This document shows positions 54,834-62,727 of a stretch of DNA of 64,000 nucleotides, piece by piece. The translations under genes and the position numbers were made by a program. Source of the stretch: Leucoraja erinacea (taxonomy: Eukaryota); contig NC_073395.1 of the NCBI RefSeq assembly GCF_028641065.1, positions 37,014,001-37,078,000 of the forward strand, read 5' to 3'. Each line of letters begins with the position of its first letter. The stretch's first letter is position 1. The notes under the pieces were generated by a model. That model made no database searches, was not told the origin of the DNA, and saw only the letters and a program-made list of their open reading frames with translations.

Positions 54834-55340
54834 TCCAGTTGCGGAGCCTGCGGGCTTACCATCGTGGAGCTGGCCGGCTTCGGAGCGTGGAGAGCTGTGG
54901 TGGCGCGCAGCTGCGATCCGACTCCGGAGCTTCGGAGGCTTCAGCAGGAGGTCCGGTGGACGGTGACATCGGGAGCTCGTGGTTCCCTGGTGAGAGACCG
55001 CTTTTCGGAGCTCCCACAAGGGCAACTTCTCCTGCCTGAGTTGCGGGGTTGAAGGTGACCCGGAGCGGGGCCTTAAATCACCTGATGCGGCTTCAACGGC
55101 CGTGGGACTTGTCATCGCCCACCAAAGGCTTTGACATTGGGAGAAGAATGGAGAGCAGGGGAGAGACAAGACTTTGCCTTCCATCACAATGAGGAGGAGA
55201 TTCACTGTAATGGATGTTTGTGTAAATTGTGTCGGTGTGTGCCTTGGTTCTTTTCTTGTTGTATGACTGGAGAAACCAAATTTCATTTGAACTTTATTTG
55301 AGGTTCAAATGACAATAAACGGTATTGTATTGTATTGTAT
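54834..55340 (+). mobile_element. 5'-truncated copy of the 29991 SINE-like family, inserted in a pLTR repeat
   Basis: Colinear with 30230-30748 and has a (TGTAT)n tail. Host CCCATTC..TCCTTCTCTCCAG flanks it. Confidence 0.8.
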
Positions 55341-55823
55341 TCCTTCTCTCCAGTTGCTGCCTGTCCCACTGAGTTACTCCAGCATTTTGTGTCTACTGTG
55401 CATTCAGAGTTTTCAGACCCCTTCACTTTTTCCACATTTTGTTACATTACAGCATTATTTTAAAATGGATTAAATTCATTTTTTTTATCATCAATCTACA
55501 CACAATACCCCAGAATGAAAAAGCAAACACAGGTGTTTAGAAATTTTTGCGAAGTAATTAAAAATAAATAACTGAAATATCACATTTACATAAGTTTTCA
55601 AACTCTTTGCTATGACACTCAAAATTGAGTTCATCCCGTTTCCATTGATTATCCTTGAGATGTTTCCACAACTTGATTGGAGTCCACCTGTGGTAAATTT
55701 TACTTCGGAGTCACGTGAGTGATTCCGTGAAGACCCCAGCGCAGTGCGCATGTGCGACATAATCGCACAGCTGTGCAGAACGCGGCCAGCGGGAGTCGGC
55801 AGCTCCCGCATCCAAGGAACGTG

Positions 55824-55839
55824 AGGTAAGTACTTACCT
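55824..55839 (+). promoter_or_regulatory. Consensus 5' splice donor in the DIRS leader within a perfect 16-bp palindrome
   Basis: AGGTAAGTACTTACCT. Confidence 0.55.
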
Positions 55840-56716
55840 TAATCGGGCCTTGTGGTTTTTGCTCCATGGGGAGCAAAGTAGAGAGGCAGCGGCCCCCGTT
55901 TTGACTCCAGCGAAGGAGCCGACAGTGGAGGGGGAAAGGCGCTAACCGGACCGCAAACGCTGCGGACCGCTGCAGGGTGCTGCGCTAATGCCGGTCCGCT
56001 GAACAGCTGTTTGGTGAACAGCAGCAGACCGGCGGGAAGTTTAAAAACCCGACCGGCAGCCCTGCAGACTCCTGACAAGGAGAATCGCCGCCCGGGAACC
56101 GCTACAATGCCGCCTGAAAAACGGCAGGCAGCCTCTACATACAGGTAAGATAAAAATCTTCCCAATTTAACAGGTTCTACAGGAGCCAACTTCCTCCAAA
56201 ACTGGAACAGGTTGGAGACAGCAAAAATAAGTATGTCTGTCTCCCCAAGCCAGAGGAGGTCATGGAGTTCACCTCCAGGAAAAAAGGGGCACTGGCTGAA
56301 TGCCAAGGGAGCTGACACTCCTACCCCAGTGCTATTGCACTAGCCATCTCCCTGGACGAGGGATTGATGCAACAGCGGAGTTTGAGCTATGCCTCCTCCA
56401 ATTTATAGCACACCCTTTTGCTCCCTCTTTTGAGGCTAGCTAAGGAGGCCAGGGCTGGGCTGGCTTAAACGCTGGGCAGGCGGACGAGAACAGCAGTATG
56501 CCAGGGGAGCAGGATCAGGAAGAGCTACTGGGTGTCGTGGGCCACTACATGGCTCCTCCACGCGACCATCTTCCCAACAAAGCCCTGCAGGAGCAGGCCT
56601 TTCTAGAGGCAAATCCGCAGGCAGCTGGGTCAGCAGACTCGCAGACAAGCAGCGAATTCTGAAGCTCCTAACAGAAGGGTAAGATGTTACCGCCTTTGCT
56701 CGTTTTTCCACGGATC

Positions 56717-56853
56717 ATACTCACCTGGCAGGCGAGACGCCATGATCACCAAGGTGGTTCTCCCAGGATGAGACTATCCCGTTGCACTACCAGGGTGCTG
56801 ACGCCTAAGATGTTCCCAAATTTGGGATACTCGACTGAACAATGGTGCATATA
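56717..56853 (+). ncRNA. RNU1: U1 snRNA-derived sequence (variant or pseudogene, 3'-truncated) embedded in DIRS gag
   Basis: ATACTCACCTGGCAGGCGAGACGCCATGATCACCAAGGTGGTTCTCCCAGG..TTGCACT..GTGCTGAC..CCCAAATTTGGGATACTCGACTG is colinear with U1 from nt 1 to the Sm-site region, roughly 80% identical by eye. Stem-loop 4 is absent. Confidence 0.93.
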
Positions 56854-57222
56854 GACCTGCCCGCAACCCCAAATATACGGGGCTATGCAAACCGCTGCTG
56901 CGGGAAGAGAGGCAGCTAAACCTGTGCGCCTCAAGAGGGCAGGCCATGGAACGAGCAGGACATCGCAACACCCAGCTGGCAGCACCCCTCGGCATCCACC
57001 AGCAATATCAAACAAGGACTGGTGAAAGCCTGGCGACCGCTTCACATTACCCCCAAAGTTCTTTTAGACAGGGGCCCAGAGCGGAGCCGTGGGAAAATGC
57101 GCCGCCCCACCGACAGCACCAGCATACCAGCAAACTAGGCCTTCATGAAAAAACAATAAACATGGAGGTAGGTAGTCTGGTTCCTCCCAGTTTACACTAA
57201 ATAAGGGTGTTCTACTAACTGC

Positions 57223-57253
<31 letters not shown>

Positions 57254-57399
57254 TTTACACTTGTTGATAAAGCATGGGATGCTGTCACAAATAACTAAAA
57301 ATATACTCAACAGTATTAGAAGATAAAAACGAATTCAAATTGGGCATATTACCGCCAGTTCAGCAATGCGCCCAATGGGCATTTTCTCCCTCTAAGAAA

Positions 57400-58950
57400 A
57401 GAGAAGTGAGAAGGTCAAGCTGAACTAGAAAGGCTCATTACTAAACGGATCATGGGAGTAAACATGAACCATTGGAATTTGTATCGAATATATTCACCAA
57501 AACTACAAAAGATGGTGAATGTAGCATCATCATTGATCTAATATCACTAAATAAATCTGTTGAGTATATACACTTTAAGATGGAGACGGGTTTTGTCACT
57601 GCCAGACATCTGATCTCCAAAGGATACCTATGGGGCGCATAGATATGGAAGATGCTAACTATCTTATACCCATACACTAGGATCATTATAGATACCTAAA
57701 AAATTTTACCTGGATAATGGATATCCCGGTTAGGGCAACCATGGGAGCATAGAGCATTCCCTATGGTCTAACCTCAGCCCTAAACTACTATAAATATTTT
57801 AAAAAATGGCCATGAAAATATTAAGAAAACAAGCATAATCATGGCATATATTGGATGATATCCTCATATTAGGGGAAACAAAGAAATTAGCTGTGGGAGC
57901 AGTTCTAGCTATGAAACAGCTCTCTAAAGCTCTGAGGTTTATCCCACGCCCAGATATACCAGAATTGAAGCGTTAACTACCAAGGATTATCTGGGCTTCA
58001 ATAATAATTCCGTCCATATGACTGTTACTTTGCCAAGGTACTTGGGTCACTATAATCAAATCATGAATGTACCCACTGAAGCTATATCACAATTAAGGTG
58101 GTGGGCAGACATATATTTGGCATAGTTCTCAGCCCTATTATCATCACCAATCCCAACTTGGTTATTAAAAACCGATGCCAGTACTTTAGGCTGGGGAGCA
58201 ACTAAACTCCATATCCAGCACAGGTAACAGATGGACCAATTCACAAACATCGTTACTACACATACCGGGCATCAACTACTTGGGATTGGTGATCGCCTAT
58301 TGGGCTAAAAAGCATATGCATTTCAAATGCAGCACGCACATATGTGGTTACGGATTGATAATACTATGGTGGTGGCTTACATCAACCATATGGGGAGCAT
58401 AATAATCATTATTGTGCAACAAATTGGTCAAACAAATCTGGCAATGGTGTGTCAAAAGACATTTTAACTATCAGCTGCCTATGTCCTAGGAAGCTAGAAC
58501 ACAGTGGGAGACACCATGTCACGGGGTAAAATTTATGATTACATTGAATAGATGTCAAACCCAAAATATCTGCTAAAGGTATTAAGCAGTTTGAAAGCCA
58601 GATATCAATTTGGTTCCACAAGACGGAATCACCAGTAACCTATGTATGTGACTTAGGAACCAGATTAGAGGCAGCAGCGATAGATGTCTACACGCTGGAA
58701 GGGGGAATTTCTGCTTTGCCTTCCTCCCTTCTGCCTCATCAGATGGGCACTTCGCAATACAGATGGGATCTGTCTCCGAGGTATTGAACGTGCCCGACCG
58801 GCCTACACAGCCATGGTTCCCAGTTCATCACGACACGGTGGGCGAGTCACCTATGGATTTCCCTAGTGGACCATGGTTGCTGACTCAACCCAGTATCAGG
58901 CACAAGCCACCCATGCCAGGGAAACATCAAACTCCTGGGTGCAGGTTTTG
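57400..58950 (+). pseudogene. DIRS RT / RNase H / methyltransferase-like pseudo-ORF
   Basis: Motifs are recognisable across many frameshifts and stops. Confidence 0.85.
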
Positions 58951-59850
58951 AATAGACCTTACCAGGGACTGGGACTATCCAAAGGAACCATTACCACCAT
59001 GTCGGCATCCCTGCGAACAGTCACTAAAAGCTAACATGGGTAAAATACTGCCACGACGCAGGGACAACGAACTATTCAACCACTGATGTATTGGAGTTCC
59101 TGGAACATCTACACCATGACTAAAAGGTGAGTTACAGTGCCGTAAATACAGCATGGAGCGCCTTATCTGCTTGTCTAAAACAGCATGTCAGCAGAGCATG
59201 GGATCCCATATCTCAGAGAATGGCACCAGCCAGATCCCTCAGCTTGCTCAATCTATGTTAAAAACGCTCATGCTTATGGCTCTCGTACACGCTCACAGAG
59301 TCCAGTCACTCCATAAGACTAGACTGGATAACATGGTGATTACCCCAGACGCATCACGTTCATATTCTAGGTCTGGTAAAATCTAACTCGCAGGTATATG
59401 GGACTAGGCGAGATTATGAGTTCGGCACGGACTAGTAGGGTCGAGATCGCCTGTGTTTTCCGTGCTGTAATCGTTATATGGCTATATGGACCAGGAACGC
59501 CCAATTAACTGGTGGGATTCCGGGCCTACCCACCAGAGTCCAGGTTGAGTGTGGTGACCCATCTACTACTATATATAGACACAACCCACAATCTTAGAGG
59601 GAGAGGAAAGCCTATGGGTCAACCACAGAAACCCCAAGACTGGGTACGAGCCAAACCACTCCAAGGTGGCTCAAACAGGTACTGAAAGCTGCCGGAATAG
59701 ATAATAATACATTTTAATCCCATTCCACTAGGGCAGCATTGGTATCAGCGGCTGAACGAATGGACATCCCGGTTGACCACATTCTCAATACGGCAGAATG
59801 GTCAAGGGAACGACGTTCAGAACATTTTTTATTATAAACCGTTGATAAAC
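58950..59850 (+). pseudogene. DIRS tyrosine recombinase pseudo-ORF
   Basis: SKWLKQVLKAAGID..HSTRAA..ILNTAEWS..FYYK catalytic C-terminal motifs. Confidence 0.85.
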
Positions 59851-60057
59851 CTGATTTAATTGCAGGAAGAATATTACAAACTGCAATATTAATTTAAGCT
59901 CAGGGGAGCTCTTTATGTTGTTATTGTTAACAAATACCTTTCTGTTTCTTGTGAAAGCAGATCCACTGGTTGATCACGATAACACTTCCTCCCTCAAAAA
60001 CTTCGGCAGTGAGTGAAATAAAAACTGTTACACGGTTTGAAATCACAGAACTTTGAA

Positions 60058-60171
60058 GTCTTCACGGAATCACTCACGTGACTCCGAAGTAAAATAGTAA
60101 GATTAAACGAGTACTTACCAGTATGAAGTTTGATCTGTATTTTATGAGGAGTTACGGTGAGGTATTACGTG
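60058..60171 (+). repeat. DIRS internal complementary region (ICR)
   Basis: First 37 nt are the reverse complement of 55698-55734. Last 79 nt are the reverse complement of 60319-60397. Confidence 0.95.
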
Positions 60172-60656
60172 CCCGCCGCTCCCACCCTCAATATATAGAT
60201 CAAACTAATAACTGATGTCTCATGATCTTTACTATCTTACTTCAAATATTGTGTCTATCCTGTGATTTCACACCGCTGCTTCGAAGTATGCCGCACATGC
60301 GCACTGCGCTGGGGTCTTCACGTAATACCTCACCGTAACTCCTCATAAAATACAGATCAAACTTCATACTGGTAAGTACTCGTTTAATCTTACTATTAAA
60401 TTGATTGGCCATGATTTGGAAAGACACACATCTGTCTATATAAGGTCCCACAGTTGACAGTGCATGTCAGAGCAAAAACCAAGCCATGAAGAAATTGTCC
60501 CTAGACCTCCAGAACGTTCCGGACCTCAGACAGGTGCAGAGGTTCACCTTCCAACAGGACAACAACCCTAAGCACACAGCCAAAACAATGCAGGAGTGGC
60601 TTTGTGACAAGTCTGTGAATGTCCTTGAGTGGCCCACAATCGAACATCTCTGGAGG

Positions 60657-61292
60657 TGTTAATCCTGGCCAAATTGGAGAGGCTAGGACACTAAAATGTA
60701 AAGGCTTCTGGGCTGCTAGGTCATTTGGTCAATTTAAAAGTGCTTTCTGTAGAAATGGGACAAGCTGCAGAATGGTGCCAGTTTGTCTAGAGCCTTGATC
60801 AGAGCCGTAGGAAGAGGATGGAAACATCCGAAGACCCTGACAATTAGGTGCAAAATACAAAGAATGGATTGAATGAATGCAAACCAGACATACACACTGC
60901 AAATAATGTTGCAAAGCTTTACGCTGCTGAATGTTGATTGGATTAAGTATTGAGCCTTGTCTGGTTTTCTTGCATATCAGGGCACATGTTGTGATGTTCA
61001 TTTCCTCTGAGAAACACTGTTTGAATACAATGTATTAGCCACTGTATTATTGGGTTAGGGAAATGTCTGTCATGTATGGGGTTTATTGATATCTGTAATT
61101 GGATTGTAAAGAGACCACCCCCATGTGGTTCAGCCTCTCAATGTCCGGGGACCTATAAAAGTTCACTACCATGAGGTCCTGTGTCGATCTTCTGGGAGAG
61201 CGCTGAGGACTGCGTGACCTTCCGGAGTGTCTCTGTTTGAGTGATTTTTGACTGAAACTAGACTGGTGGGAGCTTAGAACAAGCAATATACA
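60657..61292. mobile_element. Solo LTR (636 bp)
   Basis: GAGG|TGT...ACA|GAGG with a 4-bp TSD, splitting Tc1 sequence CTCTGGAGGGACCTG. TATAAAA near 61154. Confidence 0.85.
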
Positions 61293-62727
61293 GAGGGACC
61301 TGAAAATAGCTGTGCATTGACACTCCCCATCCAACCTGAAGGAGCATGAGAGGATCTGCAGAGAAGATTGGGAGAAATTACCCAAATACAGGTGTGCCAA
61401 GCTTGTAGCGTCATACCCAAGAAGACTTGAGGCTGTAATCACCTCCAAAGGTGCCTCAATAAAGTACTGAGTAAATGGTCTAAATACTTATGTAAATGTG
61501 AAATTTCAGTTATTTATTTTTAATTACTTTGCAAAGATTTCTAAAAGCCTGTTTTCACTTTTTTATTATGGACTATTGTGTGTGGATTGATGATAAAAAA
61601 ATAGAATTTAATCAATTTTAGAATAAGGCTGTAACGTAACAAAATGTGGAAAAAATGAAGGGGTCTGAATACATTCTGAATACGTTGCGTCTTCGGTTTA
61701 AACCAGCATCTGCAGTTCCTTCCTGCACAAAACATTTTACTCTTCCATTATCTTAAAATATAATTTTAATCTGAATCTGGTTTATGCTTTTATCAATTTC
61801 TTAGTGAATAGCTGTAAAAATAGCAAGTCCCACGTTTTGATACTATACTCCTTTTAATTATTCATTGACTGATTTAATCTAAACAAAACAACAGAAAACA
61901 ATTAACAATTTCACTGACTGCACACAAAGTAGTTATATGTCTAACTATTTTGTGGTCCCTTGGTGAAATGTGATAGTGTATTGATTATATTCACTGTGCT
62001 CAGCATTTTAAGCCAACTAATTGGGAAACATTTTATGCGTCGTATCAGAATGTTATCCTCGGATCAATAATTCAATCCAATGGTACTAAACAGCAAGAGG
62101 CTCAATGCACTGGGTTTGTGTCAGAATTATGCCCACAAAATGTTCATATTAATCTAAAATCAGAGGTGTCAGGCCATTGAGTTATTTCCCTTTGTTTTTA
62201 GATGTTGACCGACCTGCTGTGTGTTCAGTGTTTTCTCTTCTGGGTTTTCACGTTCTGGTAATTATGTGGATTGGGTTTTAATCACTACTTGAGCATCGAA
62301 ATATGTTCATACAATTCCAAAACTAAAGGCAGTTGAAAGGCCAATTCATGGAGTACAGAATGTTTGAATGCATTTTGGGTTGCATTAGTGCCCTTTGGGA
62401 AATGTCTTTTCCAGGTTTATTTCTCTCGAGCGCTATTTCTCCAGTGTATGTGATATCAATAGTAGTGCCACGTGTACGATTGATCCTTGCTAGTCGGAAA
62501 GGTTACAGTTCTTTCTTAACCATTGAAGAGCCAGCTTTCACTCACCCCGTTTCCCTAAAGTGATGCTATTTAAAGGGCCAGCAGTCAAACTGCATTCTCT
62601 GTCCCCACTGAGATCTCAGCCCTCCTACATTCTCAAGTGTAATCTCACATTGGCCCTGACTGATCTCACACTGTGCTGCTGAGTGCTGCTTCATGAGAGT
62701 CACACAAATTCCATAATAATCTTCACC

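Follow-up and report, generated by a model that had tools for sequence, protein, structure and literature searches.

A U1 small nuclear RNA fragment is heritable cargo of a coding-dead DIRS retrotransposon lineage in Leucoraja erinacea

The stretch analysed here (the window) comprises 64,000 nucleotides (nt) of Leucoraja erinacea DNA, positions 37,014,001 to 37,078,000 of contig NC_073395.1 (NCBI RefSeq assembly GCF_028641065.1), and contains a copy of a DIRS-type retrotransposon at 55697-60397 on the plus strand. The copy is coding-dead, and a fragment of U1 small nuclear RNA (snRNA) lies within its first open reading frame (ORF). We found this U1 fragment to be heritable cargo of a large coding-dead DIRS lineage. 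The features of the element, in window coordinates, are the following.

55697..60397, plus strand: whole DIRS copy, delimited by its termini and internal complementary region (ICR); longest stop-free stretch 132 amino acids; the alignments of 29 close copies start at the same 5' end
55697..55761, plus strand: left terminus and left inverted repeat; complementarity of 100% to the ICR over 38 nt and of 91% to the right arm over 47 nt
55824..55839, plus strand: leader motif resembling a 5' splice site; it belongs to a 16-nt palindrome, and the second half of that palindrome is identical to U1 nt 3-10
55880..57200 (limits approximate), plus strand: broken, gag-like ORF1; a sister's reading matches the ORF1 of a relative, with a LAP2alpha lead and deletions relative to sisters
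56717..56847, plus strand (sense): U1-derived cargo, nt 1 to about 133, placed by Rfam, alignment to host U1 and junctions compared with sisters
57200..58950 (limits approximate), plus strand: broken reverse transcriptase (RT), RNase H and methyltransferase region, from alignment to domain-bearing relatives
58870..59860 (limits approximate), plus strand: broken tyrosine recombinase region, from alignment to Phage_integrase-bearing relatives
59387..59488, plus strand: second heritable foreign segment, acquired later than U1: the 3' end of an abundant repeat, TTATATGG tail included
60058..60171, plus strand: ICR, complementary to both termini
60287..60397, plus strand: right inverted repeat and 3' terminus, from complementarity, with a donor-like motif at 60369-60379

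DIRS elements are defined by features that include outer ends complementary to an ICR (PMC7192593), and the window element has both inverted termini and an ICR. The mismatch-free agreement of termini and ICR given in a preliminary description of this DNA is borne out: the left end (55697-55734) pairs with ICR positions 60058-60095 over 38 nt and the right end (60319-60397) with 60093-60171 over 79 nt, both at 100% complementarity, and the inverted repeat arms (55715-55761 and 60287-60333) are 91% complementary. The ORF order of gag, RT/RNase H/methyltransferase and tyrosine recombinase was recovered through collinear alignment to relatives (about 65-79% nucleotide identity), in whose stop-free stretches Pfam matched RVT_1 above cut-off, Dam and RVT_3 weakly and below cut-off, and Phage_integrase with E-values from 1e-9 to 3e-7; the 14 ORF fragments of the window element itself matched no relevant Pfam family. 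For ORF1, the reading taken from a U1-free sister is 63% identical over 167 amino acids to the long ORF1 of a relative, and an Atlas lead (score 0.91, 14% of cluster members) points to the LAP2alpha family, a domain reported for ORF1 of Xenopus DIRS (PMC9210276). Integration took place without a long target-site duplication (TSD): the empty site joins 55696 to 60395 with 3 shared letters in four of four sequencing runs, and the same ATT core opens 29 of 29 copies, with a different flank each time. Intact ORFs, as expected of an autonomous element, are lacking (longest stop-free stretch 80-141 amino acids over the 5' 2.8 kb in 29 close copies), and the window copy is presumably non-autonomous.

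The U1 segment was identified by an Rfam RF00003 match at 56717-56848 on the plus strand (62.8 bits, E 2.4e-14); this score lies under the gathering score of 69.5, and no U1 match appears in the window at gathering level. The preliminary description had placed a sense U1 segment, starting at U1 nt 1, between two gag motifs, and both points agree with our data, the flanks belonging to ORF1 by the sister reading given above. Its placing of the U1 end near the Sm site likewise stands, but the position of about 56853 gives way to about 56847 in the alignments, and its divergence of about 20% was an overestimate, as the segment is 86.6% identical to the genome's own U1 genes over 127 nt (nt 1-127), a divergence of about 13%. 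An A-rich tail or TSD, absent in that description, is also absent from the U1 junction of a fresh relative (L111) and none is visible in the window. The segment does not have the make-up of a functional U1 gene (intact 5' end, Sm site, stem-loop 4, promoter elements): nt 6 and loop II are changed, the Sm site is destroyed and stem-loop 4 is missing. Unlike the host U1 genes (L031-L041), it is flanked by DIRS ORF1.

Inheritance of the cargo is evident from its distribution across copies. All 40 scored matches to window positions 56560-57000 are 98-100% identical across U1, and the 42-nt left junction occurs exactly 61 times in the genome. A pattern for the U1 5' end gave 360 matches, and this junction was counted by eye in 96 of the first 100 listed, which extrapolates to about 345 junction copies, decayed ones excluded. 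Among the 30 nearest copies, 29 have a recognisable 5' terminus, and all 29 flanks are distinct. The close copies deviate from the commonest letter of a column at 0.3-0.5% of sites, and the burst is thus young. A tree (59 bounded elements, FastTree, midpoint root, short basal branches poorly resolved) built on the recombinase region, well away from the cargo, leads from U1-free elements through copies with U1 identities of 99, 95, 89, 88, 88, 85, 87 (window) and 80% to copies with fragments. This gradation indicates that U1 aged within transposing elements. The preliminary view that U1 was carried through transposition rather than added later is supported by the junction copies, the distinct flanks and the graded tree; the junction is not peculiar to this locus, and the U1-free sisters branch below the U1 clade.

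Sequencing runs labelled organism A and organism B, the latter of the same or another species, both contain the stretch, and a contig from an organism B run spans the right U1 junction. Contigs from four runs, whose RNA status is a guess, cover the element; one spans both U1 junctions and none has a GT-AG joint. As the neighbouring repeats are covered too, these runs provide no evidence on expression or splicing. The DIRS copy is surrounded by a decayed Tc1/mariner-like transposon (about 55340-55696 and 60398-61500), and its site empty of the DIRS copy was seen in all four runs. The peptide motifs flanking the copy are ones that we take to be Tc1. A DIRS terminus pattern, which samples about three quarters of sites, matched the genome 11,755 times, implying thousands of young DIRS copies in many subfamilies.

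Comparison with sisters revealed how U1 came to lie in ORF1. In U1-free sisters the place of U1 is taken by 47 or 82 nt of ORF1, in keeping with the earlier suggestion that a gag segment was replaced, and at the 5' junction the first bases of U1 and the sister ORF1 have ATACT in common. The freshest copies contain U1 nt 1-139 at 97-99% identity, and the 133 form arose from the 139 form by a 6-nt loss. The U1-free sisters and a fresh U1 copy have in common a deletion of about 58 nt and one of 1 nt in ORF1 relative to L268, from which it follows that the recipient ORF1 was already broken. Beyond what had been described before, snRNA capture is recurrent and includes U2 (perhaps U5), the recipient was a broken ORF1, and the cargo decays like its flanks.

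By following weaker U1 matches and sampling other DIRS elements, we identified ten capture events in the genome (three U1, six U2 and one doubtful U5), all in sense orientation.

Event A: U1 nt 1 to about 133, sense; the window lineage; replaces 47/82 nt; shared ATACT
Event B: U1 nt 1-133, sense, about 60 nt upstream of A; 1 locus; replaces 41-44 nt; shared A
Event C: U1 nt 11-70 plus 120-141, sense, in the RT region; 1 locus; replaces 18-22 nt; shared GG
Event D: U2 nt 1-90, sense, old; 2 loci; duplication of about 85 nt, no replacement
Event E: U2 nt 1-96, sense, laid over D; 20 loci
Event F: U2 full length, sense; 4 loci; no cargo-free close sister found
Event G: U2 full length, sense; 1 locus; replaces 16 nt; shared AT
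Event H: U2 nt 1-95, sense; 2 loci; replaces 132-137 nt; shared AT
Event I: U2 nt 1-91, sense; 1 locus; replaces about 360 or 536 nt; shared AT
Event J: U5 full length, sense; 5 loci; a common repeat tail follows; no cargo-free close sister found

These captures are independent, since B derives from a different host U1 variant (99% identity to the L036 type, 92% to the L033 type) and E places newer U2 (98-100%) over older U2 (81-91%), with nt 91-96 present that the older copy lacks. The events occupy separate tree branches, at positions about 1.0 to 3.2 kb into the element. Host RNA replaces element sequence in all six events for which a cargo-free relative could be used (A, B, C, G, H and I). 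The snRNA starts at nt 1 in nine of the ten, C starting at nt 11, and ends at U1 nt 133-141, at U2 nt 90-96 or at the full 3' end. These ends fall on either side of the Sm site, at the position that we assume for it. Event J is doubtful and may be LINE-made (by a long interspersed element), because of the common repeat tail after U5.

The sample consisted of 76 loci from the first 100 of the 11,755 terminus matches, covering the first 11 Mb of one contig and biased to young copies; seven contained U1 and five U2, all 12 among the 43 bounded elements of at least 3.8 kb. Other cargo was sought in the same loci. ARAGORN found no transfer RNA (tRNA) gene in any of the 76, and Rfam scans by E-value, run on 33 of the sampled loci together with 8 U1-free sisters, gave U2 as the only credible match. 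Hairpin-like microRNA matches in L099 were dismissed as repeats below cut-off. A gathering-level Rfam scan of 40 sampled loci returned nothing but was insensitive, as four of them have U1 remnants by blast; because that level also missed the window U1, the null is weak evidence against other partial cargo. The genome-wide searches covered U1, U2, U5 and U6. Five loci (L081, L088, L102, L219 and L230) have short segments (65-180 nt) unmatched in any other fetched locus, possibly captured host sequence or unsampled DIRS variants.

The captures differ from ordinary retrocopies in several respects. Sense orientation in ten of ten events has p=0.002, and a both-strand recheck of the 59 bounded elements gave sense in 28 of 28 snRNA matches. 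None of the ten events has an A-rich tail or TSD, compared with 18 (tail) and 14 (TSD) of 26 non-gene U6 copies. The U1 ends lie at nt 133-141 in DIRS, as opposed to nt 146-157 in 13 of 14 other retrocopies. The layout of SINEU or of a LINE-made retrocopy (5' snRNA, 3' tail, TSD) is not present, the cargo being internal.

These same observations bear on whether LINE machinery put snRNA retrocopies into genomic DIRS elements, deleting target sequence, with the DIRS then amplifying. Retrocopies of the LINE type, from U1, U2 and U6, are common here, U5 in event J is followed by a repeat tail, and the second insert in the window resembles a repeat 3' end. Target-site deletion and 5' microhomology also occur with LINE insertions and count in favour of such an origin. 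Target truncation in LINE insertions is mentioned in PMC4494074. We nevertheless judge it unlikely, given ten sense events without tail or TSD and the differing U1 ends; moreover U6, the commonest LINE substrate here, was inside DIRS at none of 30 loci (30 of the 48 listed, both strands). Two U6 loci considered as DIRS cargo (L194 and L195) were rejected, as the both-strand match came through a nested repeat and tails and TSDs were present.

A further question is whether the cargo could have a function or be under selection, for instance through binding of U1/U2 proteins for export, packaging or escape from silencing. Cargo is present in 12 of the 43 full-length sampled elements, U2 was captured twice at one site, and U1-bearing copies (roughly 345) outnumber the closest U1-free sisters found (10 exact matches, and 40 of 40 scored matches, the latter a lower bound). 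Against this, U1 has diverged from the fresh copy by 12.7%, equalling or exceeding its flanks (10.4% and 7.9%, and 5-9% further 3'), and mutations affect its 5' end, loop II and Sm site. Most of U1 is also gone from later copies: L243 and L221 retain only nt 79-121 by blast, and deletion variants occur as well. We regard selection on the cargo as quite improbable. Because the divergence is no slower than that of the flanks and the Sm site is lost, the U1 cargo is most likely a neutral passenger. The window lineage has since taken up a second segment, at 59387-59488, found in all 8 of the later copies compared and in none of the 7 earlier ones, with 41 blast matches among the fetched loci and the window; uptake is thus not limited to snRNA.

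Taken together, we consider it probable that the window represents one of about ten heritable snRNA captures, likely made by a double RT template switch and multiplied in trans. An enzyme copying DIRS RNA from 3' to 5' would jump onto a co-packaged Sm-class snRNA, landing either on the snRNA's 3' end or close to the Sm site (U1 nt 133-141, U2 nt 90-96), run to the snRNA 5' end and re-anneal to the DIRS RNA through 1-5 shared bases. The return would lose or duplicate element sequence, and the damaged RNA, with termini and ICR retained, could then be multiplied in trans by other DIRS copies; spread in trans has been shown for DIRS-1 proteins. The putative microhomologies are short, 1-5 nt at the 5' junctions, with little at the 3' junctions.

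The little homology at 3' junctions would also suit snRNA fragments ligated to broken DIRS RNA before reverse transcription, in the manner of RtcB, followed by one template switch on the 5' side. RtcB is described as joining U6 to L1 and other RNAs (PMC6789731), but U6, the RNA shown to use this route, is precisely the one missing from DIRS at the 30 loci, and we consider such a ligation very unlikely. As the DIRS primer is described as unidentified (PMC7192593), snRNAs might instead prime DIRS reverse transcription and leave the cargo as a by-product. The chance of this seems vanishingly small: the cargo, sense and internal, was copied as a template, and snRNA 3' ends paired with the last 600 nt of 43 elements no better than shuffles did.

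Several observations weigh against a double template switch. The 3' junctions mostly lack homology, and 2-5 As follow the cargo in E, G and H. Event C begins within U1 and is interrupted by an internal gap, a close sister free of cargo turned up for neither F nor J, and U5 in J may owe its place to a LINE. The repeat 3' end gained by the window lineage means that cargo is not snRNA alone. Tails occur in only 4, and TSDs in 2, of 14 non-DIRS U1 retrocopies, so that the tail and TSD contrast rests mainly on U6. A U2 junction at L148-L150 and a U5 fragment at L212 lie outside DIRS.

Those last loci (U2 nt 1-150 at L148-L150, U5 nt 1-71 at L212) had been candidates for DIRS events and were rejected because the surrounding sequence is not DIRS. 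They are snRNA fragments without tail or TSD, and the U2 junctions are identical at the three loci. Short U2 fragments also adjoin U1 genes at L032 and L033. Other non-DIRS U1 or U2 retrocopies (L049, L053, L055, L057, L060-L062 and L152) run straight into similar GC-rich sequence. We take this sequence to be the head of a tRNA-type short interspersed element (SINE), which would suggest snRNA-SINE chimeras.

The classes of RNA captured raise the possibility that uptake of snRNAs into vertebrate DIRS particles is selective for the Sm class (U1, U2 and U5, not U6), either from their cytoplasmic maturation or via a conserved splice donor in the leader. We advance this tentatively, as somewhat less probable than its opposite. 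Cytoplasmic pre-U2 is reported to be packaged by murine leukaemia virus (MLV; PMC4752605), and Sm-less snRNAs are reported to gather in P-bodies (PMC3936765, PMC7293007). The truncated U1-tfs were rejected as the source of the U1 ends, since they are described as lacking the Sm site (PMC3936765), which the cargo includes.

Of 43 sampled elements, 37 have a donor-like motif in the interval from +124 to +147, compared with 7% of random interior windows. It stands upstream of the ORF1 start, is conserved across deeply diverged DIRS subfamilies and in several of them forms half of a 16-nt palindrome. The motif could bring in U1, and the palindrome might serve in dimerisation or masking. L073 and L088 have a pyrimidine tract and an AG just 22-30 nt past the motif. 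A second donor-like motif (60369-60379) is situated 27 nt short of the 3' end, within the terminus mirroring the ICR, and CTGGTAAGT is found there in 41 of 43 sampled elements.

Comparison with known systems places these captures among several relatives. In LTR-mediated retroposition, which involves long terminal repeat (LTR) elements, host RNA likewise replaces internal parts of ORFs with short shared junction bases, and the chimeras keep transposing as non-autonomous elements (PMC5131818); here a DIRS carrier of the tyrosine-recombinase type has acquired snRNA, captures are recurrent, and one of them is present at hundreds of copies. The direct repeats and integrase of an LTR carrier are replaced by inverted termini, an ICR and a recombinase, and the main text of PMC5131818 contains neither the word DIRS nor snRNA. 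Gag-based retroviral particles can contain U1 and U2, with pre-U2 enriched in MLV, but retroviruses favour U6, 7SL and Y RNAs (PMC4752605), whereas U6 was not seen in DIRS at 30 loci and the snRNA is heritable. SINEU are multi-copy elements with U1- or U2-derived parts to which snRNA was repeatedly added by template switch; there, however, the snRNA is a 5' head moved by Tx1 LINEs (PMC4494074), and here it is internal to an element with termini and ICR. Cassandra, Helenus and Ajax are also non-autonomous retroelements that inherit a segment derived from a small RNA, 5S or tRNA in their LTRs (PMC10886601), whereas the DIRS cargo is internal, varies in position and decays. Dada-U1 transposons are associated with U1 through insertion into U1 genes (PMC8869645); here U1 lies inside the element and no U1 gene flanks it. 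We found no report of an snRNA inside DIRS in a literature search mostly of titles and the first lines of abstracts, with subscription journals and Repbase entries outside it. The mechanism is already known, and the carrier, cargo class, recurrence and scale appear new.

The captures also affect annotation. Among the best 30 of 47 U2 loci (L143-L172), 25 are DIRS cargo and none is a true U2 gene, so the U2 reference is itself cargo (L144), and the assembly may lack the U2 gene array; DIRS cargo also accounts for 5 of 11 U5 matches. DIRS cargo therefore inflates snRNA annotation.

DIRS replication is described as poorly known, with only the Dictyostelium element examined experimentally (PMC7192593). 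Recurrent, all-sense capture provides genomic evidence that DIRS RT jumps onto host RNAs and widens RNA-based duplication beyond LTR elements to include the recombinase order, and the cargo serves as a neutral tracer that orders successive non-autonomous lineages. The Sm-class bias, if it holds genome-wide, would render particle content and assembly site testable. If DIRS particles do take up Sm-class snRNAs selectively, the genome would be a dated fossil record of what these particles contain and where they assemble.

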